The notes under the pieces were generated by a model. The model was not told the DNA's origin, did not search any database, and was given only the letters and a program-made list of their open reading frames with translations. Positions 24,901-38,167 of a DNA stretch of 64,000 nucleotides are shown here, piece by piece. The stretch is from a virus. Position numbers and translations under genes: made by a program. The stretch is taken from the IMG/VR virus record IMGVR_UViG_3300045988_149624; one strand, given 5' to 3'. Every line of letters begins with the position of its first letter. The stretch's first letter is position 1.

Positions 24901-25120
24901 TTGGGTATTTGCGACAGACGAAAATGGTAATACTAAAAAATTAACAAATTCATATAAGATGTATAATTTAGAATTAACTCCTGCTGCTACTATAGAATCT
25001 CTTATGAATGGGTTAGGAACAGTACAAGCAGAAACATTAACATTAGGTCAAGCAACCTTAAATAGGCTATCGGAAGAACAAAAAGCTAATGCAGTAGCAA
25101 ATGGTTGGACTTTAGCGTAG
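18914..25120 (+). CDS. 2068-aa host-interaction protein: LamG-like + CotH-like + two leucine-rich-repeat regions
   Basis: RBS AAGAGGTGA is present, and PSGGGGGGT forms an N-terminal linker. A LamG-like block (LVLNGNTYVEIDM...GFTLDMVFSV...GKVFINGV...IMMYERELSDEEV) spans about nt 20100-20640. CotH-like motifs (KNFNIEL, FPILLYINDEFVGLYDFNLDR, FRYYLFVQVFGGIDSLGKNMKIVTFDGIKWYLQVYDLDSLMG) span about nt 20700-21630. LRR and BspA-type repeats (CxNLxxLxL, CPxLxxV, CTSLTELHL) span about nt 22030-24600. Confidence 0.8.
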   Translation: MPTIRKYNKETEKYKRIATSDALEVAILDAEGNFESDNVEGALRELGDAKGQIEVNRGIIDAVNSTLTDHIKNHPSGGGGGGTMPTISTDWNETSIDGDKDFTIPIYFTSPNLGEGTLYVLINNVETSIQTISQGNNTIKIPALGSGKKRLSIYVRDRGQLMSNQLTWDIVCGGIKLTVTMNTDIDYTLKDRILLTYNIDCDLQTDINTIITIDGTEYTVKSNKGYNSYEIKGLTVGVHKVEIYATADVYSTPSQVFNVIVVATEQLFITSTFDTTKQYEKGQPMNINYRVSIANTDYYTINMYVDDFEKPIKTLSQQPGNYYWTFTPEFELGKHTLRIEAYNSDKSKTATLDLPFELVASSYQAMEYVSTGLIASFNAKNRTNSDVDRGYWVDDINGYIGRLYNSNYGTNGWIDGELVLNGNTYVEIDMTPFSDNVTRGFTLDMVFSVEDIGNPLARVIDCTSLSAPYPGLYVNPYKANLATVSHKTELDIGQGEDIQITFMIDRVSKFGKVFINGVCCDPFQLSDSSSGSQIIYEQIKHEEKIYLNSEKGTSNFGSCKIKRIMMYERELSDEEVLQNRIADMKIEEQEEEYNKNYNDAYMPCMYIYGDISNMTLTNKKEVRIKYVSPNADLYGSSFEYPRCKMYWQGTSSIQYANKNFNIELGDSDGNQVFYTPFKNGILEYLFCLKCNQMESSNVMNTGSAMFVNDNLYVEKNPAQLKNDKVRQAIEGFPILLYINDEFVGLYDFNLDRYSYRSYGYNLFDKCLAYEVSANSDTTAGAFNSWTSSSGKTEQNYYASDFECLYPPSRQNGNDNFAELKTLVDFVSGADEDLFKEQFDTYFDRQSVFRYYLFVQVFGGIDSLGKNMKIVTFDGIKWYLQVYDLDSLMGLDNTGALTFDVDIEVESGVFNTSNSKLWSKIRLYFANELKQEYINMRNGVFTLENMYKYFYDNQMDKIPVRYYNKSTEYKYLRFGAKYLYACHGNRYFQIKRWLKERLLYCDTLFGYEPSTSNFVTVRCNKQGKVSMNISTYSPMYLSVKWRDEADGSGTQTLKIPRNKSVKFSYTIPTATDQEVIIYGAEYIKSLGDLSTCNPTHLLLSNATRINEVICRNSSKLVNAEINGCSYLQKIDFNGCSNLGSLTSYQVMELATCQNLKYLDIRGTKMTGVNFDNNGGNLEEIYLPKTITSLYLRNQYALKIVGLTSVSWYSPFHTEALSGASDITSFTLINCPLVERLTTRSDISMSGWNQTFYDFNGNARNVDTLGDYEDATKFRKMALFGLGLCNATSIHIENSMLSTRYMSFRFNYRLEELTLKYLPNLQELTIGETQTGHRWNVTDDMCGSFDFNNINITECPNIKTFRIHQYDERQPKWFNSGTNVIDLTKFENLETFTCNITTQDLNTIILPSTLKMIWIKPMCGFSSTNYPNNCLKSKCTLKNIYFKEDHPNGYEGIDFGNRELTELCLSGVIQSTGTITGVNTKNTYVSPVFNNMNEKERGSESYPEVKVQGKIDLSNYDWTEAYWWFTNVNFTSDNLEFIMPNDWDYLIDTRLKRVRGVFFDCTNPNFTWEFAGRFFKLLQDRDDLGKTYKYATLQEQSSYEEQAVTIENNYDIADYNYGDTPFVGSNLKYIRECNFKGNAIAYGTFRNSNLVKVGTITCSGSNVWWSSESLFQNSKNLEEVECINMTGANSTTNWFASCPKLKRVGTVNVNAKNINQMYAYCPQLTELALPTLTNLERMSGFVRGCTSLTELHLNEITENTPLEYMDWAFRDCPNLTSVTIGGTTLPPTLVTMEGAYYGDKKLTKVIPLPNDFSNKCSMRSCCYGCSSLTDDNIYKTLPYNVSNMDYIYYACHGLTNPSIVVNSDRTSSQSCFEGCANIKSVRAEFNGTYSYGFNNFCNNCGELTDAYIKFPYSLYFNDDAQTCSENGNIFAYCKKLINVELNMTRLESKSDFRAMFRQDKYIESIKGFDLSNLHRDDRRPNDNAWYFTYDTSFEFMKDWVFATDENGNTKKLTNSYKMYNLELTPAATIESLMNGLGTVQAETLTLGQATLNRLSEEQKANAVANGWTLA

Positions 25121-25128
25121 GTGATTAT

Positions 25129-25710
25129 ATGAATAATATAGAAATAATAGAAAAAAAAGGTTATAGAATATTAAGACCAAAAGAGGGTTATATCCTTTAT
25201 AAAGATGGAGAAATCTTTGAAGGAGATGTGATACTAGGAGTCAATGCGACTCCTAGTGCTTATTCTACTATAGAGGATGTAAATTATAAAGAAATACAAA
25301 AGAAAATTGAAGAATTAGACCCTCTTAAAGAATTAAAAGAACAGAGAATTGAGTTGAGCAAAAATAATTTAGCACAATATCTTAAAGATAATCCATTATT
25401 TTCTACTGTTAAGTATGAAGAAGGAAGATATTATAATGTGACAATGGAGAAACAACAGTTGTTAACAAGTACTTTGCTTTCATATCAGTTAGATAATATC
25501 TTTGGAACAGAATCAAACTTGAAATGGAATGACACCAAAAATGTATGCGAACCTTATTCTTTTGAACAGTTAGGGAGATTGTCTAAAGAAATAAAATTAT
25601 ATGTTGAGCCATTAGTAGAAAAACAACAACAAATGGAAGTTAATATTAGAAATTGCAAAACAGAAGAAGAAGTGTTTAGTATTAAATTAGATTTTGAAGG
25701 AGTTGATTAG
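25129..25710 (+). CDS. tail-fibre accessory/assembly-type protein (DUF4376/XkdW-like pattern)
   Basis: ATG 25129 is preferred, with AGGTGA 4 nt upstream. The C-terminal half (NLAQYLKDNPLF...LKWNDTKNVCEPYSFEQLGRLSKEIKLYVEPLVEKQQQMEVNIRNCKTEEEVFSI) follows the pattern I recall for DUF4376 fibre-associated proteins. Confidence 0.45.
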   Translation: MNNIEIIEKKGYRILRPKEGYILYKDGEIFEGDVILGVNATPSAYSTIEDVNYKEIQKKIEELDPLKELKEQRIELSKNNLAQYLKDNPLFSTVKYEEGRYYNVTMEKQQLLTSTLLSYQLDNIFGTESNLKWNDTKNVCEPYSFEQLGRLSKEIKLYVEPLVEKQQQMEVNIRNCKTEEEVFSIKLDFEGVD

Positions 25711-26508
25711 ATGAAAGAGTTAATTGATTATTTTAATGAAAAATATACTAAAAAGAAAGAGTATATTTGTAAAGATTTAAACCCTATTAAATTATTAAAT
25801 AGCGATGAATACGATAATTTTAGGGGTGAAGCTGGTTTAATAATCCTACAAAAACTTCAATATTATCCATTATTTAAAGTGCCGAAGATAAAAAATAATA
25901 GACCAGCATCTATTGGTTATATTTTAAAAACGGATAATGAAGAATATAAAGGGAGCATGAAACAAGTTGTAAGAAACGGGCATAAACTAAATGCATATAG
26001 CAATCCTTATATTAGAATTGCAATAAACGGAGACGAGGTTGCTTTAGATAAAAATAATATATCTATAAACGTAAATAACTGTTCTTTAACATTATATATA
26101 GATTCTCCTGAGCTACCTAAATTAGAATATCCTAAAAATAAAATGGATATGTATAGAGCGTTAAATTTTATAGAGGCAGTATGCTATTCTATTTATGACA
26201 TTAATTTATTTGGGCTTTTTAATGAGGCAATGAATGATATCTTCTCCCCTAATAATATAGATGAAATTGATTTATTTTTAGAAAATTCTCTATTTTGTGT
26301 TGGTTTTAACATTAGAAACAATGCTTATTTTGTAAATCCTGATAAAGATAATTACTATACAATATTAGATGCAATCAAAAAAGGAAAAGCAATATATAAA
26401 GATTTAGAGACACCCCTTGTTAATTGGAAGATAAATAAAGAAGAAAAAGTAATATATTTAGGAGAGCTAATGGCTACCGAAAAAGGTTTAGGACTACCAC
26501 CAAACTAG
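25711..26508 (+). CDS. 265-aa protein, divergent member of the shared-N-terminus family
   Basis: It starts MKELIDYFNEKYTKK, like the family leader (M-N/K-E/K-L-I-x-Y/F-F-N-E-x-Y). The YP-x6-YR-x3-I element is displaced to about aa 140 (EYPKNKMDMYRALNFI). Confidence 0.6.
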   Translation: MKELIDYFNEKYTKKKEYICKDLNPIKLLNSDEYDNFRGEAGLIILQKLQYYPLFKVPKIKNNRPASIGYILKTDNEEYKGSMKQVVRNGHKLNAYSNPYIRIAINGDEVALDKNNISINVNNCSLTLYIDSPELPKLEYPKNKMDMYRALNFIEAVCYSIYDINLFGLFNEAMNDIFSPNNIDEIDLFLENSLFCVGFNIRNNAYFVNPDKDNYYTILDAIKKGKAIYKDLETPLVNWKINKEEKVIYLGELMATEKGLGLPPN

Positions 26509-26521
26509 AAAGGAGTTTAAA

Positions 26522-26869
26522 ATGAACGAATTAATTAAATTATATAACAATAAATATTCTAAAATAGAATATCCAAAAACTAAATTAGATTTTTACTATG
26601 TTTATTTATTTTTACAAAATAAAATAAATGAATATGATGATGGTGAATTAAGAAAATTATTTGAAAAAATAGAAATTCCAAAACCAACAACTCTTAAAGA
26701 ATTGGATATATATAGAGAGTGTGTTGACTTTATTAATGGTATTAGAATTTCTAAAACAGGAAACAAAAGTACTCATTCTCTTAGTGATACTTCCTATAGA
26801 TTGGGGTTTCATGAAGTTTATGAAGAAAATGGATATTTATATTATTATCTTGAAGGGGGAATGGAGTAA
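26522..26869 (+). CDS. 115-aa member of the shared-N-terminus family (short form)
   Basis: MNELIKLYNNKYSKIEYPKTKLDFYYVYLFLQ...LRKLFEKIEIPKPTTLKELDIYRECV aligns over about 70 aa with the N-termini of ORFs 28166, 30824 and 35945. Confidence 0.7.
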   Translation: MNELIKLYNNKYSKIEYPKTKLDFYYVYLFLQNKINEYDDGELRKLFEKIEIPKPTTLKELDIYRECVDFINGIRISKTGNKSTHSLSDTSYRLGFHEVYEENGYLYYYLEGGME

Positions 26870-27285
26870 TGAAAAAAATAATAGATAAATATAATGAAAA
26901 GAATCTTTTACCATTTCCACTGCCATATCCAAAAACAGATTTACAAATATTAAAAACATATAAATTTTTATCTATGATTCAAGATGATGAAATACAAAAA
27001 ATGTTAAAAGATATTAAATTGCCTAAAATAGATTCTTGGAAAGATTATTTTTCTTTAAATGAAGATGGGAACGAATATTATACTATAAGTGTGCCAAAAG
27101 AAACAAATGAGTGGGAAAATGAAATAGACGAGATAGAAGAAGCTATAAGAAAAGGTAAGATTATTCTAGTAGAAAACGATGAGGGTATAATATGTACTGC
27201 TGAAAGTGTGGAAATAAAATTGGAGACCAAAAAGATACAGATTACAACTAAAGATTCTGATTATGGGAATATGGGACCCGTATAA
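26869..27285 (+). CDS. 138-aa member of the shared-N-terminus family (short form)
   Basis: MKKIIDKYNEKNLLPFPLPYPKTDLQILKTYKFL...IQKMLKDIKLPKIDSWKDY matches the family. Its start overlaps the previous stop (TAATG). Confidence 0.7.
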   Translation: MKKIIDKYNEKNLLPFPLPYPKTDLQILKTYKFLSMIQDDEIQKMLKDIKLPKIDSWKDYFSLNEDGNEYYTISVPKETNEWENEIDEIEEAIRKGKIILVENDEGIICTAESVEIKLETKKIQITTKDSDYGNMGPV

Positions 27286-27323
27286 AGAACTAATTAAATT
27301 AATTAAACACTTATAAATAATTT

Positions 27324-27352
27324 AGAGTAGGGGTTGCCCTACTCTTTTTTTA
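27324..27352 (+). terminator. rho-independent terminator (cassette copy 1)
   Basis: AGAGTAGGG-GTTG-CCCTACTCT is followed by T7. The same stem sequence recurs at 30170. Confidence 0.8.
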
Positions 27353-27371
27353 ATATAAAGGAGATGGTTTT

Positions 27372-28157
27372 ATGGTATCAAAACCAAAAATGATAGAAAG
27401 TTTTATTACAAAAAATAAATATAGTAGACCCGGAACAAAACGTTCAAGAACTACTAAAATAGCATGGCATTATACTGGTGCGCATGATGTATCTGCTAAA
27501 GCAACCATGAATTACTTTAAAAACTTAGCAACAACACATACAACTTATGCAAGTTCTCACTTTGTATGTGGACTTGATGGAGAAATATATTATATAGTTC
27601 CTATGAGTGAAATAGCATATACAACTAACAGTGCAAACTATTATTCTATCGGTATAGAATGTGCAACTACTGGAACTGATGACCATTATTCAGATAAAGA
27701 ATACGTGTCTATGGTTAAATTAGGAGCTTGGTTGGCTCAATATTACGGATTAGACCCTAGAAAAGACTTTATAAGACATTATGATGTAACTAGAAAGGTA
27801 TGCCCAAGATACTTTGTTAATCATAAAGATAAATGGAATCAGTTTAAATTAGATTGCTATAATCTTAAAGAAGGTAAAATAAAAGTATCTGATATTGTGA
27901 ATTGTACTAATGGAAAAAAACATACTTCTAAAGTCCCTAGCACTACAACTAAAAAACAATATTTAAGAGTGCTTCAAGATGTTAATGTACATAGCACTCC
28001 TGACTTTAAGTCTAGTTCTGTTTGTGGTAAAGCAGAAAAAGGAGAAGCGCTTACTATTGTTAAAAAGATAGAGAGACCCGGAACAGATATGTATTTAGTG
28101 AAGGCAGGTTATTATATAACTGCTAGTAGTAAATATGTAGAAGTATTTGAGAGATAG
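27372..28157 (+). CDS. endolysin: N-acetylmuramoyl-L-alanine amidase (Amidase_2/PGRP type) + SH3-like wall-binding domain
   Basis: Amidase_2 signatures are IAWHYTGA, SSHFVCGLDGEIYYIVP, SIGIECA and IRHYDVTRKVCPRYF. The C-terminus YLRVLQDVNVHSTPDFKSSSVCGKAEKGEALTIV...YITASSKYVE is SH3b-like. Confidence 0.8.
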   Translation: MVSKPKMIESFITKNKYSRPGTKRSRTTKIAWHYTGAHDVSAKATMNYFKNLATTHTTYASSHFVCGLDGEIYYIVPMSEIAYTTNSANYYSIGIECATTGTDDHYSDKEYVSMVKLGAWLAQYYGLDPRKDFIRHYDVTRKVCPRYFVNHKDKWNQFKLDCYNLKEGKIKVSDIVNCTNGKKHTSKVPSTTTKKQYLRVLQDVNVHSTPDFKSSSVCGKAEKGEALTIVKKIERPGTDMYLVKAGYYITASSKYVEVFER

Positions 28158-28165
28158 GTGATTAA

Positions 28166-29737
28166 ATGAATAAATTAATCAAATATTTTAATGAAAATTA
28201 TGGGAAAGAATATGGAAAAATCTCTTATCCAAGAACAACAATTCAAATATATAGAGCGTATCAAGCCATAAAGAGTTACGGTATAGATGATGAAAAGTTG
28301 ATAAGTTTATTACACGACATTAAACTTCCTCAGCCTAAAACAATAGAAGAAAAAGAATTATATGCCGATTGTTTATATGATTTAGATGATAGCGAATTAT
28401 TAATGGGAGTCCCTTATACACAAAAGATAAAAATTTTGGAAAATTCAATTCCTGTAGAACAATATAATGGGAATTATGGTTATCGCTCTAATACTTTTGA
28501 TTATAATATAAAAAATTTAAATATTAAAAATCCATCACATATAGAAATAGATATTTATTATGGGGAAAATTTAAATACAGAAATAGAAGAAAGCGATTAT
28601 CATTTCAACGGAGTTTTACTTTTGAAAGAAAGTAACGATAGTACTTATGACTTTTGGTTTCCTGCGTTAGAAATAAAAAATGATGACTATGGGGATTCTT
28701 CAATATATTTAGTATTGTGGATATATAAACATGGAGGGAAAATAGCAGTAAGTCATAGACTTCATGATGATACATATATTTCTATGTTTTTTATTAAAAA
28801 AATATCTTTAAGTTTTTACGAAAATAAAGGAGGCACAATTCAAGCACCTCAAATTGGAAGCGTAGATGCCAGAGCTTTAATTAACAAAGAAGATGGATTG
28901 AGTGATTACGCCACATCTTCTAATCCTGTATTTACAGGAAAAGTAGTTCAATATAAGGATAATGCCCAATCTTATGAGGGAGGGAATGGTAGTGCTAGAT
29001 TTGGATATAGTAGTTCAGGAGAAAACAGTTTCTCAAGTAACTGGGGTTCTGCATCTGAAAAGTATAGTTTTGCAGCAAATACAGCGTGTGCTTTTGGAGA
29101 AGGTTGCTTTGCTATTGGTAAGGGCACTCATGCTTGGGGAGAGAATCAATTTGTATTTGGTTCTAATAATATATATGATAAAAAAAATAAATATATGTGT
29201 ATAGCAGGGAATGGAATAGATGCAGATAATACCAGTAATGCTTATACGTTAGACTGGAATGGTAATGCTTGGTATAAAGGTAATATAAGTATAGATGGCG
29301 CTCCAACTAATGACAAAGATTTAACTACAAAAAAATATGTAGATGATTATTTAAGTCCTTTAGTGAAAAAAGTCGGAGAAGTTACAACTCAAGTAGCACA
29401 AGAACACGTTCCAACTGCAACAACTACATATCTAAATAATATGTTTAATTTAGTTGAAATACCTATAACAAATTCTACTTTAACATTAACTTCTGCTAGA
29501 AATCAAACTCCTACTGGTGGAGTAATGGTTGATGGAACTACTATTGTATTACCTGAAATAGATTATTTTACAGAAATACATTTATTTTTTAAAGCAGATG
29601 CAAATATGAATTTAACATTACCCGATATTAAATATCAAATGACTACGGATATAGTTGGAGGTAAAATATATGAATTTATCTTTACTCATTTGAATGGATT
29701 AAATGAATGGATAGGAGGATATGTAGCTTATGTGTAG
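28166..29737 (+). CDS. 523-aa tail fibre with shared N-terminal module and YadA-head-like (Hep_Hag-type) repeats
   Basis: Family N-terminus is MNKLIKYFNENYGKEYGKISYPRTTIQIYRAYQAIKSYGIDDEKLISLLHDIKLPQPKT. It also has NPVFTGKV, the repeats GENSFSSNWGSASEKYSFAANTACAFGEGCFAIGKGTHAWGENQFVFG, and NAYTLDWNGNAWYKGNISIDGAPTNDKDLTTKKYVDD, which is shared with ORF 35945. Confidence 0.75.
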   Translation: MNKLIKYFNENYGKEYGKISYPRTTIQIYRAYQAIKSYGIDDEKLISLLHDIKLPQPKTIEEKELYADCLYDLDDSELLMGVPYTQKIKILENSIPVEQYNGNYGYRSNTFDYNIKNLNIKNPSHIEIDIYYGENLNTEIEESDYHFNGVLLLKESNDSTYDFWFPALEIKNDDYGDSSIYLVLWIYKHGGKIAVSHRLHDDTYISMFFIKKISLSFYENKGGTIQAPQIGSVDARALINKEDGLSDYATSSNPVFTGKVVQYKDNAQSYEGGNGSARFGYSSSGENSFSSNWGSASEKYSFAANTACAFGEGCFAIGKGTHAWGENQFVFGSNNIYDKKNKYMCIAGNGIDADNTSNAYTLDWNGNAWYKGNISIDGAPTNDKDLTTKKYVDDYLSPLVKKVGEVTTQVAQEHVPTATTTYLNNMFNLVEIPITNSTLTLTSARNQTPTGGVMVDGTTIVLPEIDYFTEIHLFFKADANMNLTLPDIKYQMTTDIVGGKIYEFIFTHLNGLNEWIGGYVAYV

Positions 29738-30146
29738 GCTAAATTTAATGATGTATAACCCTAAAAGAGTTCCTAAAATGAGTGCCAAACTTGAAGCAGA
29801 TGGAAATAAAATATATTTCTATGGTATATTTAATGACTTTAAAAATAAAGATAAATATTATTTTAAAGAAGTTAAGCATGGAATAATTTATATTAATTCT
29901 ACAAGAATCACTGATAAAGGAAGCTTAACTGACGAGACTGAAGGTAGGACAAGAGTAAATTTTGGAACATATAAAGAAGATGGAAGTGTTAAATATAGTA
30001 TGAAACCTTATAATAAATCGTTGAATTATTTGGCAGTTGCTTTTTGTTCTTATGTAGATGAAGATGGTAAAACAAAATATGCCTATTCGGATGTGGTAGA
30101 AGGTAATGCAACAGATGGATTCGTTCAAAGATATCCTCATAAATAA
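29730..30146 (+). CDS. 138-aa hypothetical protein
   Basis: The ORF overlaps the fibre gene end by 8 nt, with GGAGGA 10 nt upstream. No motif was recognised. A terminator follows. Confidence 0.5.
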   Translation: MCRLNLMMYNPKRVPKMSAKLEADGNKIYFYGIFNDFKNKDKYYFKEVKHGIIYINSTRITDKGSLTDETEGRTRVNFGTYKEDGSVKYSMKPYNKSLNYLAVAFCSYVDEDGKTKYAYSDVVEGNATDGFVQRYPHK

Positions 30147-30169
30147 AATTTTATAAAATATAATAATTT

Positions 30170-30197
30170 AGAGTAGGGACTTCCCTACTCTTTTTTA
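30170..30197 (+). terminator. rho-independent terminator (cassette copy 2)
   Basis: AGAGTAGGG-ACTT-CCCTACTCT is followed by T6. Its stem is identical to that at 27324. Confidence 0.8.
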
Positions 30198-30220
30198 TTA
30201 AATACAAGGAGATGTAAAAT

Positions 30221-30484
30221 ATGGATAACAAAAATAAGGTTAAGAAAAAACGTAGTACTAGAAAGTGGGTAATACCTTTAGTAATCACATCTATATTTGC
30301 TTTCACAGGTATTGCGATATGGTTACAATATGCTACTAGCACAGAGTTATCTTCAACTTTAATAACTTGTTTCTACGGATTTTGTGGTGGTGAGCTTTGG
30401 CTATTAGCATCTATCACAAAAACAAAAACAAAGAATAATAATAGTGAAAATATAAATACTGATGATTCAGAAGGAGAGGAATAA
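30221..30484 (+). CDS. putative holin (2 TM, charged C-terminus)
   Basis: An 87-aa protein with a basic N-terminus (KVKKKRSTRK) and two TM segments (WVIPLVITSIFAFTGIAIWLQY and LITCFYGFCGGELWLLASI). The tail is acidic (DDSEGEE). RBS CAAGGAGA is present. Confidence 0.55.
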   Translation: MDNKNKVKKKRSTRKWVIPLVITSIFAFTGIAIWLQYATSTELSSTLITCFYGFCGGELWLLASITKTKTKNNNSENINTDDSEGEE

Positions 30485-30487
30485 AAA

Positions 30488-30823
30488 ATGGATGTTCAAA
30501 CTATTTTAATATCATTTATAATATCTATAGCTGTTATATATACAGTATACAAATTTATTAGTTTAAGTAAAGAAAGACAAGTAGAAAATATCAAACAATG
30601 GCTTATATTTGCCTGTCTTGAAGCTGAAAAAATGTTAGGCAGTAAAACAGGTAAAGTAAAATTAAGATATGTGTATGATTTATTTGTTAGCAAATATAAA
30701 TTTATATCTTGTCTTATCCCATTTGATACTTTTAGTAAATGGGTAGATGACTCATTAATAGATATGAGAAATATGATAAACACTAATAAAGCTATCAAAA
30801 AGATAGTAGAGGGAGTTGATTAA
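30488..30823 (+). CDS. LL-H-family-like holin / lysis accessory protein
   Basis: N-terminal TM segment is ILISFIISIAVIYTVYKFI. It is followed by WLIFACLEAEKMLGSKTGKVKLRYVYDLFVSKY, the pattern I recall for the LL-H holin family (PF09682). Confidence 0.5.
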   Translation: MDVQTILISFIISIAVIYTVYKFISLSKERQVENIKQWLIFACLEAEKMLGSKTGKVKLRYVYDLFVSKYKFISCLIPFDTFSKWVDDSLIDMRNMINTNKAIKKIVEGVD

Positions 30824-33800
30824 ATGAATGAATTAATAAAATATTTTAATGAAGAATATAGTAAAGAATACGGAAAGGTTTCTTATCCTAGAACTACTCT
30901 ACAAATATATAGAGTATATCAAGCTATAAAATCTTATGGAATAAATGATGATAAATTGGTTGAGTTGCTACATAACGTAAAATTACCTAAACCTAAAAAT
31001 ACAGAAGAATGGGAGTTATATGTTTATTGTTTATATAATATGGATGATAGTGAATCAGAAAGAAAGATTAAAGATATTTCGAACAAACTAGAAATACTTC
31101 CTGTAAAAAATACACATCAGGTTATCCGAGATGGAGTACCAGTTTCTCAACAAAATATAACTTTAGATGGAAATAACTATAAAGCATATATATTTAATGA
31201 CGAACAAATAACAATACCAGACAGCTTAGTATTAGAAGATTTTGAAAATAAGTTTTTAGCCATAGCTTCTCACTCTAAAGGAGTGTTAAATGCCGTCATT
31301 TCATATAATGATGGTGTAAATGATATAACAAAAGAAATAGAATTGACACGTGACGAAAATTTTACTTCAAACTATTTTGATTATAGTGACTATACTGAAT
31401 CTAGTATATTGAATATAACATTTGGATTTGACTATGGTATTAACAAATTTTTTATATACGTTTATTATATGAAACAACCTATGAAATCTCCGATTTTTTA
31501 TGAGGTGAAAAAAGTTTCACTTTCATATTCGTATATTACCAACTTACTAGATGACGATTATTTAAAAAGTATTGATTATTCTAAAATTAATAATGTCCCT
31601 TATAAGTTAACTGCTCTTGTAGAGGGTTCAACAAAAACACTAAAGACTGGGGAATATGCATCTTTATTCGATAATTTATTTATTTGGGATGCCAATAAAA
31701 TAAATGAACGATTAGATGATACAAGTGGAGTAAAAAAGAATGAATATTATGAGCATAATATAAAAGTTAAACAAAAAGATAGTGAAGGAATAGGTTACGG
31801 TCAATATATTCCAGCCGAGTCCATGTCTGAATATAAATTATTTATTAAAGCTGGTCCCGATGTTATAGTAAGGGTTTACCAACATAAAACAAAACAATTA
31901 TTAAATAAAATAAAAGATTTCCCTCTTGGAGAATACAAAGAAATTATGGTAAGAGACGGCTTAAATAGAAGTGACGGAATATTTATTGCTTTTACTGTCA
32001 AAGATGATGTAACAGATTTTTATGCTAATACTTATGTTAGTGATTTAGTTTTATGTAAATCAGATGGATTTTTAACTAAACAAGAAGTAGATAATAAAGT
32101 TGATAAAGTAGAAGGCAAAGGATTATCTACAGTAGATTTTACTACTGCTTATGAAACTAAACTTAAAGGATTGTCTAATTATAATGATACAATTATTAAA
32201 AACGATATACAAACAATTAATACACAATTAGGAGATATTGCGAACACAGGTAAATTGACAGATTTAAATACAACTGAAAAATCTAGCATTGTCGGTGCAA
32301 TAAATGAGGTTTTTCAAAATGCCAGTAATGGTAAAACTTTAATTGCTCAAGCTATTACTGGCAAAGGTGTATCAACGAGTAATACAGATACATTTCAAAC
32401 TATGGCAACTAATATAAACAGTATACAGACAGTTTCTGATGCGAGTGGCATTATATTTACTTTAAATAATAAAAAATACAAGCTATCCAAAAACGATAAA
32501 GGAGAATATATTGCCACTTTATTAGCTTATTCCGTAACAAGTAATTTAACTCACTGCACTTTAGATAATACTAATACTTCTATTGATTATGGAAATAAAT
32601 ATACTTGTAATATTTCGGTAAACAAAGGTTTTATTATAGATTCTGTCGTTATTACTATGGGTGGAACAGATGTAACCAGTACTGTTTTAAAAGGTAACAT
32701 TATTACTATAAATTCTGTTACAGGGGATGTTATTATAACTGTGAATTGTGTTGAAGAACCAGCTAACCCTGTTTATGGAAATATAAAGGCAACTCCTAAC
32801 TATACTTTTAAAATAAATGAAATTAAAGGAAAACTTGACCCCGATTTACAGGTTAGCTTAGCAACAGCTCCTAACTTAAACCAAACAATTACTATAACAA
32901 ATAATACTCCCGAATATATTACAATATCTCCTAACACTCTTACTTTTACTCCCGATAATTATTCAGTACCACAAAAAGTTAGTATTTCACCTATAAGAAA
33001 AAATAATGATTATTTAGATAGACGTGGTGAATTAGTATTAAGTAGTAAGGGGGTTACTGATTATACAGCTAAATGTACTATAATTAATACAGATAATTAC
33101 ATCCATCCCTCAAATTGTACTTTAAGTGATAAAGTACTTGATATACACGCTTATGGATTAAATAGTGTTCCTACAACATTGGAATCAAGTGTTAATAATA
33201 TTTCCTGTGCAGTTACACCAATTTCCAATGAAGGTGACGATAATGTTAGTAAAGCTACAGCTAATGGATTACAATATGTAACTATTGATGTTCCTAGTTT
33301 AAAACCATATCTTAATGAGTCTAAAGGCATAACTGCTATTTATGTTAGTATGGGGTATCCTTTTGTAGATAAGAATTTAAACTCTTATCTTAATTTGTTA
33401 GGTATTAATTCTACTAAAATGAATAATTCATCATATCTATTTGGTTATACAAAAAAACCTTCTACAAAAGGGTATGAAGCTTTAAACTCATATTTTTATA
33501 CTTCATTTAATGAAAAGACTACAAGTGCCGATTTACATTTTAATGTATTTATGTTTAATCCTTCTGATGCACCTGTCGGAATTACTTATATGATTGATGA
33601 TACTAATTATACAAGCATAGGAAGTACTGGTTGGTTTGATTATGGTAAGGATTTAACTAGCAAAATTAGTTCTTATAAAAATGTATCTAAAGAATCGAAC
33701 ACAACTTTTGTTGCATATCAAGTATATAACGGAATACTTAGTTTAGATGATATAAATACTATTAAAAATGGGATATTGGAAAATTTAGTTCCTAGTGAGG

Positions 33801-35839
33801 TTACAAATACAATAGACAACATGACTGTAAACGTTGGCGATACTATATTATCTACAGCTACTGTTCTTCCTACTGCATTAGAACCGATGTGTACTAAATC
33901 TATAACATTAAAGGATGATAAACTTATAAAAAATAAAAATGAGGTAATTGCCAAAGCAGAGGGTCAATCTTCTTTTACTACAACTATTTCTAAACCTCTC
34001 GCAGGTGGAAAAACTTATGATTATAATTTTGATACTAATGTAACTATAGCCCCAAGTTATATAAAGGATTTAACTGTTACCAAAGCAGAAGAAGGTGTAG
34101 TTATATCTAATCCTATTAGTGAATTAACTGTAGGGCAAGAATATTTATTGATTGGAACAACACTTCCACCTCGTTTTGATGAAGAAAATATTGTTTATTA
34201 TGAATCATCTAATATAGAAGTTGCTAGAGTTAGATATGGGCTTGTAGAGGCGTTAAAGGAAGGTTCTTGCACTATAACTGCTTATAATCATGATAAGACA
34301 TATAGTTACCAAATGCCTCTTACTATAAAACCTAAAAAAGAACGTATTTTTACAAATATAAAAACTATCAATCCTTCTGATTATTCTTTTAGTGCTACTG
34401 ATTATGAAGGTAATTATAGATTAATGAAACAAATTATAGAAGAGGATAGTGCTGGTTATGATAAAGTTGTTTTTCCTAAAGGTTCTGTTTTTAAATTAAA
34501 AATGCCTCTAGGTACTACATATAATGAAGATGGTAGTGTTAATAGTTATCAAGCAGAAAGTAGTATAATTCCTAACAGTAATACGGTTTATGATTTTAAT
34601 AATTCTCGTATCGAAATGCAATTCTCTGAATATTTATCATTGGATTCAGTTTATAAAGATGGAATAAAAGTTACGCGTGGATATAATTTGTTTAATTTTA
34701 CAACCAAAGATAACCCAGAATCTTCTATTGGACAATATCAAACGGTTCTTGAAGACTCCGAAATACGAAATTTAACTATAGTAGGTGAAAGACAATTATT
34801 CCCCGAACAATATAATGATAGTGATGGTGGTTGGCAAATACGTTATGTGAATTTTGCTACTTGTAAAAGATGTGGTATAGTTAATTGTGACATTGGTTGG
34901 TGTACTGGATTTAATATAGGAAGTGTTCATGGGCAACAATCATGGTCACCTATTATACAGGGAAGTCATATTGAATGGGGAGCAATAAATTATGAAACTG
35001 GTGAAGATGATACTACAACTTATACAGATAGGGTTAGAATTAAAAAGGCTAATATTTGTCAGTTACATAAACGAGTTATAAATAAATATACTAATGACAA
35101 TAGTTATTCTGTCGGCATATGGGCTGGATATTTAGGTTATGATTATATGGGAGCTAGATTTTATGATATATTCTTTTATAAACATGATGAGGCTACTGAT
35201 ACATATGAGTATCTTGGTTGTCATAAATATGAATATTTATATGGTATATATGAATTTCCTAAAGATGCTACTCATTGTAGACTTGTGTTTTATCAAAAAC
35301 GTCTACCCCCTAGTGGTGGATTAAATTATTTAGGTGGTGGAATAATGATGATAACACATCTTCCAACAAGTGTTGATTGTTATATTGAGAATTGTTATAT
35401 ACACGATAATTATGCTAGTGGATTTGCTTGTTGTGGTGGACAGAGATTCTTAGTTAAAAATTGTAAATTTGAACGTAATTATGGAAGAGATGGATTAGGT
35501 TGTCATGTAGATTTTGAAGATGGTAGAGAAGGTGCAAACTGTTGTATAGTTAGTAACTGTACTTTTGACGATAACTATTACGGATTTATAATGCCTTCGG
35601 GATTATACGAAGTATTACATGATAATGAATTTAATGGTTGTGGTGTAAAAACAACAACTGAAAGTATTTTGATGTTTAATAATATTCATAAAAATACGCA
35701 TTTTACTAGACAAGAAATAGGCGAGGCTATTGTAGCAAATAGTATTTTTAGTAATGTTACTATGAATGAAGTTGCTAGAAGTGATTGGGAAAAGGATTAT
35801 AAGTGGAAAATGCACATGATTAATAATCATATGATATAA
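30824..35839 (+). CDS. 1671-aa tailspike/depolymerase-type protein with shared N-terminal module, Big_2-like domains and C-terminal right-handed beta-helix
   Basis: Family N-terminus is MNELIKYFNEEYSKEYGKVSYPRTTLQIYRVYQAIKSYGINDDKLVELLHNVKLPKPKN. Fibre motif KVDKVEGKGLSTVDFTTAYETKLKGL is present. Big_2-like segments (MTVNVGDTILSTATVLP..., LTVGQEYLLIGTTLPP...VEALKEGSCTITAYN) span about nt 33800-34320. Beta-helix repeats (NCYIHDNYASGFACCGGQRFLVKNCKFERNYGRDGLGCHVDFEDGREGANCCIVSNCTFDDNYYGF) span about nt 35380-35600. Confidence 0.8.
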   Translation: MNELIKYFNEEYSKEYGKVSYPRTTLQIYRVYQAIKSYGINDDKLVELLHNVKLPKPKNTEEWELYVYCLYNMDDSESERKIKDISNKLEILPVKNTHQVIRDGVPVSQQNITLDGNNYKAYIFNDEQITIPDSLVLEDFENKFLAIASHSKGVLNAVISYNDGVNDITKEIELTRDENFTSNYFDYSDYTESSILNITFGFDYGINKFFIYVYYMKQPMKSPIFYEVKKVSLSYSYITNLLDDDYLKSIDYSKINNVPYKLTALVEGSTKTLKTGEYASLFDNLFIWDANKINERLDDTSGVKKNEYYEHNIKVKQKDSEGIGYGQYIPAESMSEYKLFIKAGPDVIVRVYQHKTKQLLNKIKDFPLGEYKEIMVRDGLNRSDGIFIAFTVKDDVTDFYANTYVSDLVLCKSDGFLTKQEVDNKVDKVEGKGLSTVDFTTAYETKLKGLSNYNDTIIKNDIQTINTQLGDIANTGKLTDLNTTEKSSIVGAINEVFQNASNGKTLIAQAITGKGVSTSNTDTFQTMATNINSIQTVSDASGIIFTLNNKKYKLSKNDKGEYIATLLAYSVTSNLTHCTLDNTNTSIDYGNKYTCNISVNKGFIIDSVVITMGGTDVTSTVLKGNIITINSVTGDVIITVNCVEEPANPVYGNIKATPNYTFKINEIKGKLDPDLQVSLATAPNLNQTITITNNTPEYITISPNTLTFTPDNYSVPQKVSISPIRKNNDYLDRRGELVLSSKGVTDYTAKCTIINTDNYIHPSNCTLSDKVLDIHAYGLNSVPTTLESSVNNISCAVTPISNEGDDNVSKATANGLQYVTIDVPSLKPYLNESKGITAIYVSMGYPFVDKNLNSYLNLLGINSTKMNNSSYLFGYTKKPSTKGYEALNSYFYTSFNEKTTSADLHFNVFMFNPSDAPVGITYMIDDTNYTSIGSTGWFDYGKDLTSKISSYKNVSKESNTTFVAYQVYNGILSLDDINTIKNGILENLVPSEVTNTIDNMTVNVGDTILSTATVLPTALEPMCTKSITLKDDKLIKNKNEVIAKAEGQSSFTTTISKPLAGGKTYDYNFDTNVTIAPSYIKDLTVTKAEEGVVISNPISELTVGQEYLLIGTTLPPRFDEENIVYYESSNIEVARVRYGLVEALKEGSCTITAYNHDKTYSYQMPLTIKPKKERIFTNIKTINPSDYSFSATDYEGNYRLMKQIIEEDSAGYDKVVFPKGSVFKLKMPLGTTYNEDGSVNSYQAESSIIPNSNTVYDFNNSRIEMQFSEYLSLDSVYKDGIKVTRGYNLFNFTTKDNPESSIGQYQTVLEDSEIRNLTIVGERQLFPEQYNDSDGGWQIRYVNFATCKRCGIVNCDIGWCTGFNIGSVHGQQSWSPIIQGSHIEWGAINYETGEDDTTTYTDRVRIKKANICQLHKRVINKYTNDNSYSVGIWAGYLGYDYMGARFYDIFFYKHDEATDTYEYLGCHKYEYLYGIYEFPKDATHCRLVFYQKRLPPSGGLNYLGGGIMMITHLPTSVDCYIENCYIHDNYASGFACCGGQRFLVKNCKFERNYGRDGLGCHVDFEDGREGANCCIVSNCTFDDNYYGFIMPSGLYEVLHDNEFNGCGVKTTTESILMFNNIHKNTHFTRQEIGEAIVANSIFSNVTMNEVARSDWEKDYKWKMHMINNHMI

Positions 35840-35886
35840 ATTCGTAATTTAAAAATATTACGAAATTATTTATCAAACTGAAATTC

Positions 35887-35912
35887 AAGAGTGGTAACAA
35901 ACTGCCACTCTT
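35887..35912 (+). terminator. weak terminator-like hairpin
   Basis: AAGAGTGG-10 nt-CCACTCTT is an 8-bp stem with no clear T-run. A second hairpin, TTCGTAAT-N8-ATTACGAA, lies at 35841-35864. Confidence 0.35.
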
Positions 35913-35944
35913 ATCATACAAAAATCAATAAAGGAGTTGATTAA

Positions 35945-36874
35945 ATGAATAAACTAATTGAGTTTTTCAATGAAAAATACGGAGACAAATATGGGAAGAT
36001 TCCTTATCCAAGAACAACAATGCAGATATATAGAGTATATCAGTCTATAAAAAGTTATGGGATAAAGGATGAAGAGTTAGTTAAATTGTTACATAATATT
36101 AAATTACCTAAACCAAAATCTATAGAAGAAAAAGAGTTATATACAGATTGTTTATACAACAAAGATGATAGTGAGATGGTAATAGATACAAGTAATTTAA
36201 TTTCTAAAGAAAACCCTGTATTTACTGGTAGTATGAGTATGAATAGGAAAGAAGGGGCAACTATAGGAGAATATAGCGTTGCTATCGGGAAAACTGTTGA
36301 AGCGTCAGGAGAATGTTCTTATGCAGAAGGTAAGAATACAACTGCTAGTGGATGGAGTTCTCATGCAGAAGGAGAGGAAACGAAAGCTAAGGGGCAAACT
36401 TCCCACGCAGAAGGAGATAATTCAATCGCTGAAGGCATAAGTTCCCACGCAGAAGGCAGTTATGCAGTTGCCAGTGGAATAACTTCTCATGCAGAAGGAG
36501 AGGGAACAAAAGCTTATGGAAAATCATCTCATGCAGAAGGTAGTTTTACAACTGCCTCTTCAAATTATCAACACGTTCAGGGTAAATATAATATAGAAGA
36601 TAAAAGTAATAAATATGCCCATATAGTTGGTAATGGTAAAAGTGGTATGGAAAGAAGTAATGCACATACATTAGACTGGGAAGGTAATGGTTGGTATGCT
36701 GGTAAATTATCTCAAGAAGGTACGCCTACCGAAGATAAAGATTTAGTTACTAAAAAATATGCAGATGCTTCTTTAGAAAATAAAGTAGATAAATCTCAAT
36801 TATCATTTAATTCTGACGGAGAACTTGTTGTAACTATAGATGGAATTAGTAAAACATTCGTACCTAAAGCCTAA
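35945..36874 (+). CDS. 309-aa tail fibre with shared N-terminal module and Hep_Hag-type heptad repeats
   Basis: Family N-terminus is MNKLIEFFNEKYGDKYGKIPYPRTTMQIYRVYQSIKSYGIKDEELVKLLHNIKLPKPKS. NPVFTGSMS is followed by SSHAEGEETKAKGQTSHAEGDNSIAEGISSHAEGSYAVASGITSHAEGEGTKAYGKSSHAEG. NAHTLDWEGNGWYAGKLSQEGTPTEDKDLVTKKYAD is also present. Confidence 0.8.
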   Translation: MNKLIEFFNEKYGDKYGKIPYPRTTMQIYRVYQSIKSYGIKDEELVKLLHNIKLPKPKSIEEKELYTDCLYNKDDSEMVIDTSNLISKENPVFTGSMSMNRKEGATIGEYSVAIGKTVEASGECSYAEGKNTTASGWSSHAEGEETKAKGQTSHAEGDNSIAEGISSHAEGSYAVASGITSHAEGEGTKAYGKSSHAEGSFTTASSNYQHVQGKYNIEDKSNKYAHIVGNGKSGMERSNAHTLDWEGNGWYAGKLSQEGTPTEDKDLVTKKYADASLENKVDKSQLSFNSDGELVVTIDGISKTFVPKA

Positions 36875-36906
36875 TTTAAATTCACAATTTTAAAAAAAAT
36901 AAACAC

Positions 36907-36935
36907 TTGACAACGTTATTACAAAGTAATATAAT
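36907..36935 (+). promoter_or_regulatory. consensus sigma-A-type promoter
   Basis: TTGACA (36907-36912), an exact 17-nt spacer, then TATAAT (36930-36935). The spacer sequence resembles that of the minus-strand promoter family. Confidence 0.75.
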
Positions 36936-36962
36936 ATTCTTATAAGATTGGAGGATATTAAA

Positions 36963-37016
36963 ATGAATAATAAAAAAATGATAAAAGAAATACTAAAGAA
37001 AATATTGAAGGCATAA
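36963..37016 (+). CDS. 17-codon ORF (MNNKKMIKEILKKILKA) between a consensus promoter and a terminator
   Basis: GGAGGA lies 7 nt upstream of the ATG. The peptide is basic and amphipathic. The unit is closed by the terminator at 37097. It may be coding or may be part of a small RNA. Confidence 0.35.
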   Translation: MNNKKMIKEILKKILKA

Positions 37017-37096
37017 TTTTTAAATATAATAAATATTTTAATATATAAATGCGAATAATATAGATAAGTTATTCTATTTGTATTATTTATGGATTA

Positions 37097-37130
37097 CCCT
37101 CTAGTCTTATGGCTAGGGGGTTGTTTTTAT
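37097..37130 (+). terminator. rho-independent terminator
   Basis: CCCTCTAG-8 nt-CTAGGGGG (one G.U pair) is followed by TTGTTTTTATTT. Confidence 0.65.
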
Positions 37131-37135
37131 TTATA

Positions 37136-37228
37136 GTCCATTTTAAGTGGAAAATTTTTAAAAAGTAGTTGTATTTTTGTAATATTTATCATATAATAAT
37201 ATCAGAAAGGGCAAAAAGTCCACTTTAA
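37136..37228 (+). promoter_or_regulatory. parM promoter flanked by two GTCCAYTTTAA boxes (candidate parC/ParR operator)
   Basis: GTCCATTTTAA (37136-37146) and GTCCACTTTAA (37218-37228) bracket TTGTAT (37169-37174), a 17-nt spacer and TATAAT (37192-37197). Confidence 0.5.
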
Positions 37229-37246
37229 ATGATATGGAGGGTTAAT

Positions 37247-38167
37247 ATGAATAATGTAAGTATATGCAGTGCTGACATAGGCAATATCACAAGTATCTTC
37301 ATGGGAGATAAAAGTAGTGACATTTTAATAATTGAAAGTAGAATAGAAAAATATTCTACGATTAAAGAACTTGGAGATAATGAAATATTTGAAACAGATG
37401 AAAAATGGATAGTAAATCAAGGAGAATTTAAAAACGAACATTTAAAATTTAAAAAAGATAACTTCTTTAATTTACTTTATTATGGATTGGCTAAAGTAAG
37501 TAAAAATAATAGAATCAAACTTGTATTAGGAATTCCCGCAGGACAATATAATGAATACAGTCAGGAATTAAAAGCATTAATAAAACAAAATAATATGAAA
37601 AAGATAACTCTTGGATCAGGTAAAGATAGAGGAACTAGAACAATTTATATTGAAGATGTGATAATTCGTCCTGAAAGCTATGGAATTAAAAATTTAAAGT
37701 CCGTAAATAAGGCACAAGTAGAAGCAAAAACTCTTATCGTAGATATAGGTGGAGGAACAACAGATATAGCTATATTTAATGAGAAGAATAAATTTATAGA
37801 CGGAGAATCTTTAGACATAGGACTATTAGAGTTATATCATAATGTAAAGAAGTATATCTCTATGAAATATTGTAAGATTAGTCTTGAAGATGCTAAAAAA
37901 GTATTTGACGGAGAAATTAAAATGATTAATATACAAGATTATTCTTTTCTTAAAGAGTTCCAAGATGACTTTATGAATAAATTATTAAATGAATTTAAGG
38001 GGAGTTTCCCAAGTGCTATTTCATGTAATTTAATTCTTGCAGGGGGTGGGGGAGAAATAGGTATCGACTACTTTAAGGAAGAATATCCTCAAACTATTTT
38101 AGTAAATGATATTGGAGTAAATGCAAAAGCCTTTCGTTTAATGGGGTTAAAGAAATGGCAAAAATAA
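37247..38167 (+). CDS. parM: actin-like segregation ATPase (ParM/Alp family)
   Basis: ATG 37247 has GGAGGG 5 nt upstream. Phosphate-1-like motif is CSADIGNITS, phosphate-2 motif is LIVDIGGGTTDIAIF, and the adenosine-type motif is LILAGGGGEIG. Its size and its pairing with a small RHH gene fit a type II partition locus. Confidence 0.75.
   Translation: MNNVSICSADIGNITSIFMGDKSSDILIIESRIEKYSTIKELGDNEIFETDEKWIVNQGEFKNEHLKFKKDNFFNLLYYGLAKVSKNNRIKLVLGIPAGQYNEYSQELKALIKQNNMKKITLGSGKDRGTRTIYIEDVIIRPESYGIKNLKSVNKAQVEAKTLIVDIGGGTTDIAIFNEKNKFIDGESLDIGLLELYHNVKKYISMKYCKISLEDAKKVFDGEIKMINIQDYSFLKEFQDDFMNKLLNEFKGSFPSAISCNLILAGGGGEIGIDYFKEEYPQTILVNDIGVNAKAFRLMGLKKWQK

Follow-up and report, generated by a model that had tools for sequence, protein, structure and literature searches.

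The window analysed here, the whole 64,000-nucleotide (nt) stretch of IMG/VR virus record IMGVR_UViG_3300045988_149624, is AT-rich (26–33% G+C) and belongs to a phage lineage sampled from human gut metagenomes. Proteins identical to those of the window occur on contigs of 140–148 kb, and the phage, which is uncultured, has a genome of roughly 146 kb. Six open reading frames (ORFs) on one strand, beginning at positions 25711, 26522, 26869, 28166, 30824 and 35945, share a single N-terminal module of approximately 70–77 amino acids (aa). These are the ORFs singled out in a preliminary description of the sequence; all six exist, and their first ~75 residues align. The module-bearing genes, together with an overlapping ORF and a conserved C-terminal motif, are arranged as follows.

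25711–26508, + strand: 265-aa small protein in which the module is split; helix 1 at aa 1–15 (25711–25755), the rest at aa 137–191 (26119–26283)
26522–26869, + strand: 115-aa small protein; full module at aa 1–76 and a tail of ~40 aa
26869–27285, + strand: 138-aa small protein; three-helix module, linker at aa 51–69, alpha/beta domain at aa 70–133, hypervariable last ~26 aa
28166–29737, + strand: 523-aa variable fibre; module at aa 1–77 (28166–28396), short YadA-like head end and neck, distinct C-terminal domain
29730–30146, + strand: 138-aa ORF overlapping the 523-aa gene by 8 nt
30824–35839, + strand: 1671-aa variable spike; module at aa 1–77 (30824–31054), fibre shaft, Ig-like domains, C-terminal right-handed beta-helix
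35945–36874, + strand: 309-aa variable fibre; module at aa 1–77 (35945–36175), YadA head at aa ~105–236, neck, C-terminal motif
36800–36859, + strand: C-terminal motif LSFNSDGELVVTIDGISKTF of the 309-aa protein (aa 286–305)

A profile hidden Markov model (HMM) built from five window copies and three database copies of the module recovers the ORFs at 35945 (E 6e-40), 28166 (E 1.8e-38), 30824 (E 2.1e-38), 26522 (E 1.5e-32) and 26869 (E 1.9e-28). The 265-aa ORF at 25711, which was left out of the model, is found by it at E 1.1e-7 among all translated ORFs of the window and of the related loci, and no other ORF of the 64-kb window scores better than an E of about 1. The match to the 265-aa ORF falls in two pieces, with residues 1–15 corresponding to helix 1 and residues 137–191 to the remainder, indicating that this ORF is a genuine copy of the module carrying an insertion of ~120 aa, and not the weaker copy for which it had been taken. 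The related loci compared throughout comprise eight that encode an identical 115-aa protein (L001–L008), eleven further relatives from IMG/VR (L021–L031) and one contig from a metagenome-assembled genome (L009). The split architecture recurs in all relatives, with orthologues of 262–283 aa in L009, L021–L025 and L027–L031, and in proteins P0175, P0187 and P0214. The motif said to be common to the other five ORFs holds overall, except that the 26869 copy lacks its PKP and, in the structural model, helix 4.

At the DNA level, the three long copies constitute a 248-nt direct repeat (D1) of 75–77% identity that starts 16 nt ahead of the ATG and takes in the Shine-Dalgarno sequence. Another repeat, D3, spans the Shine-Dalgarno sequence and the stop codon upstream of four module genes. 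Comparison of the three long paralogues by the Nei-Gojobori method gives a proportion of synonymous differences (pS) of 0.65–0.77, which is saturated, and a proportion of nonsynonymous differences (pN) of 0.13–0.16, corresponding to a dN/dS of about 0.1. These values indicate that the paralogues are old and that their similarity has been kept by selection on the protein rather than reflecting recent duplication. Thus, the DNA repeat that had been noticed by eye is real (76% identity), but the long copies do not have mostly matching codons, as synonymous sites differ at 65–77%. The combination of 76% identity with saturated synonymous sites also makes homologous recombination among the copies of this genome unlikely, and the repeats are therefore a doubtful route for swapping cassettes within it, as had been suggested; the exchange that we observe is between genomes.

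The structure of the module was modelled with AlphaFold2 from a 49-sequence alignment spanning the whole family. The resulting model (predicted local distance difference test score, pLDDT, 89.2; predicted template modelling score, pTM, 0.77) is compact and all-alpha, with helices at residues 2–16, 25–37, 43–51 and 60–70, and is followed beyond residue ~72 by a low-confidence segment (pLDDT ~58). As modelled, the module is a compact domain on a flexible tether. A Foldseek search of this model against the PDB, including the tailspike protein (TSP) structures of phage CBA120, and against BFVD yielded nothing below E 3.8. No family covers the module in Pfam, in NCBIfam or in a sequence-profile search of the PDB, and PHROGs contains no covering family, giving only scattered single matches with E>5e-4. 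Searches by tblastn with the module against 50,697 phage records and against plasmids, and with two divergent module subtypes against phages, likewise found no match. Two candidates were set aside, one being a PDB profile match to WA20 (E 0.024), which is a designed helical bundle, and the other a 'pre-neck appendage protein' of a Lachnospiraceae phage, which scored 0.1 bits against the HMM as a putative distant copy. The module, which the earlier reader did not recognize, thus finds no counterpart in Pfam, PHROGs, NCBIfam, PDB and BFVD, and in particular none among known chaperone or non-structural domains. On the basis of the model, it would define a new family of putative attachment domains with a confidently predicted fold.

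Attached C-termini and small module proteins

When 1.84 billion representative proteins were searched exhaustively with HMMER, 126 sequences were returned at E<=1e-3; two of them (P0192 and P0217) contain internal repeated matches and look spurious. The ~124 members of the family range in length from 46 to 1598 aa. Their module begins at residue 1–13, nearly always at residue 1 itself, or, in three proteins, is split after helix 1. A separate homologue search with either of two alignments listed almost exclusively proteins no longer than 170 aa, and the long members were recovered by the exhaustive search. Two divergent subfamilies, in which the YPRT loop is replaced by IDDS or IDDD, are represented by the patterns MKKLIELFNKKYG..GVIDDS and MKKLIKMYNEKYG..GVIDDDFNKEQMY.

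A Pfam scan of the C-termini of 75 representatives identified YadA_head in ten, Phage_fiber_rpt in five, Pect-lyase_RHGA_epim (a pectate-lyase-like beta-helix), Laminin_G_3 and Ig-like (Big-like) domains in four each, CotH in three and DUF285 in two, together with single cases of a BNR sialidase, a polysaccharide lyase, a GDSL (SGNH/GDSL) esterase, NAGPA, GH16, a metallophosphoesterase and C1q. Judged by these family assignments, the C-termini are host-recognition modules of the receptor-binding or glycan-degrading type. When 43 close-subfamily representatives are compared pairwise, module identity averages 67%, and 556 of the 903 pairs (62%) display no detectable similarity past residue 95. 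The proposal that the module is a discrete N-terminal domain borne by unrelated C-termini is therefore upheld by the range of folds that Pfam detects behind it, from YadA heads, fibre repeats and beta-helices to sialidase, lyase, GH16 and SGNH/GDSL enzymes. In one member, P0128, module and fibre shaft are fused to the catalytic C-terminus of a tyrosine recombinase (integrase), which could represent either an assembly chimera or a real integration into a fibre gene.

Many of these proteins are also conserved at their opposite end. A nearly invariant motif, FSFNxxGELVVTINGVSKTF(V)PK (also written FSFN..GELVVTINGVSKTF), resides 4–6 residues from the C-terminus in 32 of 122 representatives. It occurs in both the close and the distant subfamilies and in L002–L020, is far better conserved across two phage groups than the N-terminal module, and is carried in addition by fibres that lack the module (519 aa in L005; 527 and 210 aa in L009). 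A tblastn search with this motif found no match among cultured phages. From its position and its beta-hairpin-like pattern, we suspect that it is a foldon-like trimerisation nucleus.

The window itself encodes several proteins of the receptor-binding protein (RBP) type that differ in their C-termini, namely the 523-aa fibre, the 1671-aa beta-helix spike and the 309-aa YadA-head fibre. The head of the 309-aa protein matches Pfam YadA_head (31.4 bits, E 2.3e-7) and BpaC (7o23, E 1e-15), and it is 52–56% identical to annotated tail spike or fibre proteins of cultured Flavobacterium and Verrucomicrobia phages (52% for phage immuto); its head repeats imply a trimer. YadA-like heads had been ascribed to the 523-aa protein as well, in which the resemblance is limited to 127 aa at 47% identity to the head end and neck of the 309-aa protein, with no match to Pfam YadA. 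The shaft of the 1671-aa protein contains repeats of the form GKGLSTVDFT..YETKLKGL and matches phrog_26419 'tail fiber' at aa 452–599. Its C-terminal 491 aa, scanned alone, match PF13229 Beta_helix at 29.7 bits (cut-off 25.9), in agreement with the beta-helix read from the sequence earlier; a match to TIGR03804 is borderline, and no solved homologue of the beta-helix region was found by sequence search. The exact sequence of this protein is present on only 3 contigs.

The ORF at 29730 that overlaps the 523-aa gene co-occurs with it in L001, L002, L007 and L008. Both are missing from L003, L004 and L006, and a different four-gene cassette is found in L005. No Pfam, PHROG or NCBIfam family matches this ORF, which is possibly a cognate assembly factor for the fibre.

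Some of the C-termini had been described as stubs; the three short proteins at 25711, 26522 and 26869, referred to below as the trio, are not degenerate. They are instead the most conserved members of the family, and all three are identical in L001–L008 although the fibre sets of these loci differ. The exact sequence of the 138-aa protein is found on 44 contigs and that of the 265-aa protein on 40, and the many 114–116-aa orthologues of the 115-aa protein vary only at aa ~83–95 and at their last residues. An AlphaFold2 model of the 138-aa protein encoded at 26869 (pLDDT 82) contains helices at residues 2–11, 24–36 and 40–46 followed by a beta/alpha/beta domain, for which a Foldseek search against the PDB gave nothing significant. 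Column entropy across 48 orthologues of this protein is 0.09 bits at aa 51–69 (KLPKIDSWKDYFSLNEDGNEYY) and 1.66 bits at aa 113–138. The former segment is thus its most conserved stretch, yet it is modelled with the lowest confidence, as is typical of segments that become folded on binding a partner. Similarity between the C-termini of the 138-aa and 265-aa proteins (YYTI...AI(R/K)KGK; BLASTP E 0.22) is only suggestive, and we do not claim homology.

Gene order and cassette turnover among relatives

All module copies lie on the late-gene strand directly 3′ of the tail genes, and the long ones are interspersed with lysis genes and terminator-like hairpins. The flanking and intervening features are listed below.

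18914–25120, + strand: 2068-aa tail-region protein with a CotH kinase-like domain at aa 649–958 (E 2.4e-10)
25105–25710, + strand: 201-aa protein (193 aa if started at the ATG at 25129), encoded immediately 5′ of the module genes
27324–27345, + strand: hairpin T1, resembling an intrinsic terminator (9 pairs, then a T run), which closes the unit of tail genes and trio
27372–28157, + strand: endolysin (Amidase_2, E 1.5e-22; DUF5776, E 4.7e-7; PHROG endolysin, E 4.7e-33)
30170–30191, + strand: terminator-like hairpin T2, a near-duplicate of T1
30221–30823, + strand: two small membrane proteins of 87 and 111 aa, putatively holin-like by position and hydrophobic segments
36907–36935: perfect sigma-70 consensus promoter (TTGACA-17-TATAAT)
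37096–37121, + strand: terminator-like hairpin T3, which ends the late-gene block and is followed by a ParM-like gene

The sequences around T1 and T2 constitute a repeat (D9) with 91% identity over 35 nt (27316–27350 versus 30162–30196). The 87-aa and 111-aa membrane proteins have no family match; every relative retains their genes, flanked by that of the endolysin and those of the variable fibres.

The related loci share a common plan. In its 5′ part, the CotH protein and the 193/201-aa protein are followed by the trio (262–283, 115–128 and 135–155 aa) and the endolysin; in its 3′ part, an optional cassette precedes the two small membrane proteins, one to four long module proteins (386–1895 aa) and the ParM-like gene. 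Across 19 related loci the trio is invariant, and the long proteins constitute different sets from locus to locus, with combinations of 1671+309, 497+306, 684+493, 537+721+306 and 1598+492 aa, a single protein of 1895 aa, and a 721-aa protein accompanied by a disrupted 309-type gene (236-aa ORF).

Comparison with related phages for swaps at the module boundary, a check that the preliminary description had recommended, reveals exchange at or within the module. Identity to the window by blastn ends in L004 at 31054, the last module codon (77), and in L003 at 31008, in codon 62, where helix 4 starts, and chimeric modules exist (for example, L003:14425). Further into the gene, the 497-aa and 721-aa proteins match the 1671-aa gene over its first ~462–474 codons and then diverge at the repeated shaft motif. 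Whole cassettes also change position. The slot after the holin-like genes of L004 is occupied by the YadA cassette of the last gene of the window (94.5% identity), and the 537-aa and 306-aa fibres of this locus bear near-identical modules. At 11640–11721 of L003 and L004, a vestigial module start, ATGAATGAATTAATTAAATAT (MNELIKY), comprising 11 codons (MNELIKYNNLG*), is fused to the terminator hairpin T2; as read from the sequence, it is the footprint of a cassette deletion at a short AAATAT microhomology. The corresponding slot in L005 contains a 108-aa module-only protein, ORFs of 95 and 165 aa, and the 519-aa fibre with the C-terminal motif but without the module. The 108-aa module-only protein is present also in L009, L021, L030 and L031, and the 527-aa protein of L009 that bears the C-terminal motif is encoded ~750 bp downstream of the module protein.

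A comparable array exists in a distant group of phages, in which a divergent subtype of the module (~28–30% module identity) is found on IMG/VR contigs of 87–128 kb. In L018, the module heads long proteins of 155, 388 and 449 aa as well as three small ones encoded in succession (78, 107 and 86 aa). An endolysin and small membrane proteins are likewise interspersed in the array of this group, and a homologue of the 201-aa protein adjoins a module gene. Thus, the multi-copy array, including its small members, is an ancestral trait that has been maintained, and is not an accident of the genome studied here. A tyrosine recombinase gene also lies inside the module array of L018 (11894–12895).

Tail genes, host and mobile insertions

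The block read on the + strand extends from 228 to 42148 and leads from the tail genes to the ParM-like gene. The remainder of the window is read on the − strand and encodes functions in replication and nucleotide metabolism (a DnaE-type polymerase, NrdD, a Dam methylase, a RecJ-like protein and a primase). The tail genes include matches to the PHROG categories 'minor tail protein' and 'tail protein', a 1802-aa protein with glycerophosphodiesterase-like repeats and a 1291-aa protein with SLT and NlpC/P60 domains. The 2068-aa protein has a 90%-identity cluster of 849 sequences and, as its nearest cultured relative, gp353 of Bacillus phage G (29.5% identity). Downstream of its CotH domain, many leucine-rich-repeat-like units can be seen by eye, and CotH also occurs as the C-terminal module of three proteins that carry the N-terminal module. 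A megablast search with positions 25000–37000 found no match in cultured phages or in plasmids.

The 201-aa protein matches phrog_1348 'tail fiber protein' (E 4.5e-5) and scores 15.4 bits against Pfam DUF4376, which is below the cut-off of 25. Proteins with DUF4376 are tail-fibre chaperones in Alteromonas phages (PMC10579305). Over its C-terminal 127 aa, the 201-aa protein is 50% identical to a 207/216-aa ORF adjoining module genes in the distant phage group. These similarities make it a candidate for a tail-fibre chaperone or an accessory protein. The 201-aa ORF and that of the 111-aa membrane protein both end in EGVD*, inside the 15 conserved nt that precede the next module gene.

The glycerophosphodiesterase-type tail domain and the Amidase_2/DUF5776 endolysin suggest that the host is probably Gram-positive. 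When the 115-aa protein was searched against 185,579 species genomes (GTDB), the single match was L009, an 81.6-kb contig (CALEJY010000250.1) that had been placed by CONCOCT in a bin labelled Candidatus Melainabacteria. We regard this label as unreliable because of the Gram-positive-type tail enzymes and endolysin. The segment at 36907–38445 comprises the promoter, the terminator-like hairpin, a ParM/ALP-type actin-like gene and, downstream of it, a small ORF. The window ORFs that were scanned include no recognised integrase, and the phage may persist as a plasmid prophage.

One tail gene carries a mobile insertion. Within 14947–18902, an insertion of 1,506 nt (16860–18365) bearing an HNH/CapR-type homing endonuclease ORF (17115–18206) splits a gene with LTD and metallophosphoesterase domains into ORFs of 638 and 179 aa, and both the stop codon and the new ATG come from the insertion. 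The same gene is intact (816 aa) in L002, L003, L007 and L008. An Rfam scan of the whole window found nothing, and in particular no group I intron around the insertion, which is therefore either an unrecognised intron or the cause of a true split gene. In L004, L005 and L006 (positions 1–2400, corresponding to window position ~16464), the gene is broken elsewhere by a different insertion of ~1.3 kb with a CapR-type ORF of 308 aa. The difference in both sequence and position suggests that two independent mobile insertions target this gene across the relatives.

A putative attachment domain and its alternatives

We consider it probable that the module is the virion-attachment (anchor) domain of a multi-fibre adsorption apparatus. 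In phage fibres and spikes, the N-terminus is the particle-binding end, whereas the C-terminus binds the host (PMC10253068). We read the module as an anchor because it is always N-terminal, is under strong purifying selection, is followed by a flexible linker and is fused to unrelated RBP or enzyme modules, and because it occurs also as a separate small subunit ahead of a module-less fibre, is encoded where the tail operon ends and stays constant while the rest is exchanged. By this account, the module would form the virion-proximal end of the fibres and spikes, a common 'plug' that fixes different receptor-binding or glycan-degrading C-termini onto the same tail. The invariant trio would be supplied from the end of the tail operon, and one to four variable long module proteins from genes around the lysis genes. 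Attachment information would reside wholly within the first ~77 residues, with a flexible linker after them, such that a cassette acquired from a related phage would be immediately compatible with the tail; plug compatibility of this kind would explain why C-termini turn over rapidly behind an N-terminus that stays constant. The proteins would accordingly be virion components, the module would bind a partner in the tail or baseplate, and the trio may form or occupy part of that site. Of the earlier idea of a common docking domain with interchangeable modules, the N-terminal domain, the varied C-termini and the cassette swaps are all observed, and docking itself is proposed.

Several points weigh against this interpretation. 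Virion membership of these proteins and binding by the module are reasoned from sequence and gene context. No socket of the T4 gp10, BppU or T7 gp17 type was detected in or near the array, or in the tail ORFs upstream of it, by sequence profiles (Pfam, PHROGs and NCBIfam), and the 'branched' arrangement that had been proposed for the proteins therefore stays an analogy, with neither a gp10-like domain nor another known socket in these scans. In both phage groups, the endolysin and holin-like genes are found among the long module genes, an arrangement that is unusual for structural genes and would be equally fitting for a role linked to lysis. The near-identical modules on two fibres of L004 mean that a scheme with one site per fibre cannot hold, leaving the stoichiometry unexplained, and simple anchoring does not account for the role of the trio.

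In a more tentative refinement of the attachment reading, one fold would serve as both plug and socket. The module would be a homotypic or heterotypic association domain, and the trio, as a hub in the baseplate, would offer module-fold surfaces to which fibres attach through module-module contacts, so that hot-swapped cassettes would compete for sites and virions would carry mixed sets. The invariance of the trio while fibres change, the recurrence of a small-protein trio in the distant group, the coexistence in L004 of two fibres with near-identical modules, and the failure to detect other sockets are all consistent with this arrangement, as is the conserved, low-confidence segment at aa 51–69 of the 138-aa protein (entropy 0.09), which has the character of a segment that folds on a partner. 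However, the confident model of the module is that of a closed, monomeric domain, the proposed interaction is a prediction, and the identity of the trio in L001–L008 would fit an unrelated conserved role equally well. We judge the hub unlikely, though worth stating for what it would entail.

Alternatives that dispense with attachment appear less probable still. The module could be an assembly tag that recruits a chaperone or aids folding or trimerisation, without holding anything on the tail, and is perhaps removed or dispensable later. A conserved DUF4376-like protein adjoins module genes in both phage groups, and small co-inherited ORFs follow fibre genes, in line with this idea; however, the DUF4376 match lies below the Pfam cut-off, the small proteins bear the module but have no fibre to fold, and a folding nucleus is better sought in the separate, highly conserved C-terminal motif FSFNxxGELVVTINGVSKTF. 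The chaperones known for fibres, including intramolecular ones, moreover act on the C-terminal end. We find such a function improbable. About the same, or slightly lower, standing is given to the possibility that the proteins are not virion components but soluble or cell-surface enzymes or adhesins released at lysis, or exported with the help of the holin and endolysin, with the module acting in oligomerisation or targeting in connection with the lysis cassette. The interleaving of module genes with endolysin and holin-like genes in both groups and the many glycan-degrading C-termini are in keeping with this view, as is the absence of a signal peptide, by which export would have to be non-classical. 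Yet the fibre-like C-termini, with their shaft repeats, trimeric YadA head and tip motif, match annotated tail spikes and fibres, the trio lies inside the tail operon before the first terminator, and the interleaving is better explained by gain and loss of cassettes at the end of the late operon, given the duplicated terminators and the vestigial module start. Finally, the module could be a handle for recombination at the DNA level, or part of a programmed shufflon or switch of the Gin/Cin type, with a peptide that has no function of its own. Breakpoints between genomes do lie within the module or at its end, the array of the distant group contains a tyrosine recombinase gene, and P0128 is an integrase fusion. 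Against this stand a conserved protein sequence (pS 0.65–0.77 versus pN 0.13–0.16) that folds into a confidently modelled domain, and the lack of any recombinase family among the window ORFs scanned. Programmed inversion (Gin/Cin, Rci) was rejected, since all module genes are direct copies on the + strand and substantial flanking inverted repeats are lacking, the best inverted repeat being one of 34 nt with 71% complementarity. A handle of any such kind is very improbable.

The attachment reading has parallels among known phages. In CBA120 (Ackermannviridae, TSP1–4) and in RaK2 (gp526–534) and phiK64-1 (Alcyoneusvirus), shared N-terminal domains mediate assembly of proteins whose enzymatic C-termini differ (PMC10253068, PMC11414711). 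Their D1/D2 domains, which comprise an alpha-helix plus a beta-sandwich of six strands, dock on the gp10-like XD domains of a self-anchored organiser (PMC10253068). Like these phages, the one studied here encodes several RBPs per genome with paralogous N-terminal domains, and exchanges C-termini with other phages. The module differs from D1 and D2 in being all-alpha, and it has no sequence or fold match; a single module is shared by all fibres; a set of three small module-only proteins is conserved; and sequence profiles found no gp10-like domain or organiser. The two systems would thus be analogous and not homologous.

In dual-RBP podophages of Klebsiella (KP32, K11 and KP34), RBP1 contains an anchor and a branching domain, and RBP2 carries a docking peptide (PMC6872550, PMC13352976). 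There, as proposed here, a short conserved N-terminal element renders an RBP plug-compatible and permits swapping of depolymerases. Whereas the Klebsiella element is a short peptide that engages a gp10-like domain of RBP1, the module is a 70-aa folded domain found on every fibre and on small proteins in addition, and a branching domain was not identified. In the gp37-type adaptor of SP6 and K1-5 and in BppU/BppL of the lactococcal phage TP901-1, attachment is separable from receptor binding, and these adaptors resemble the stand-alone 108-aa module ahead of the module-less fibre in L005; in contrast to them, the adaptor part described here is mostly fused to the fibre, and no Pfam or PHROG match links the two. 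Trimeric autotransporter adhesins (YadA and BpaC) share head repeats with the 309-aa protein only, which has neither a signal peptide nor a beta-barrel anchor and scores far below the cut-offs of the corresponding NCBIfam models, and in this family the YadA head is one of many interchangeable C-terminal modules.

The phage lineage that carries the array is common in human gut metagenomes, as reflected in the 849-member cluster of the 2068-aa protein and the occurrence of the 138-aa protein on 44 contigs. In these genomes, the module HMM picks out host-range genes that are all currently annotated as 'hypothetical', and the attached C-termini (sialidase, polysaccharide lyase, GH16, SGNH esterase, YadA heads and CotH) offer hints as to which glycans the host displays on its surface. 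If docking is as we propose, the ~77-aa module would constitute a compact plug-and-play handle for retargeting gut phages, and all fibres would be held by one anchor, which raises the question of whether virions of a single genotype carry a uniform set of fibres. Should the less probable plug-and-socket hub also prove correct, a single burst would release virions with mixed, combinatorial fibre sets, representing a bet-hedging device for host range in abundant phages of the gut.

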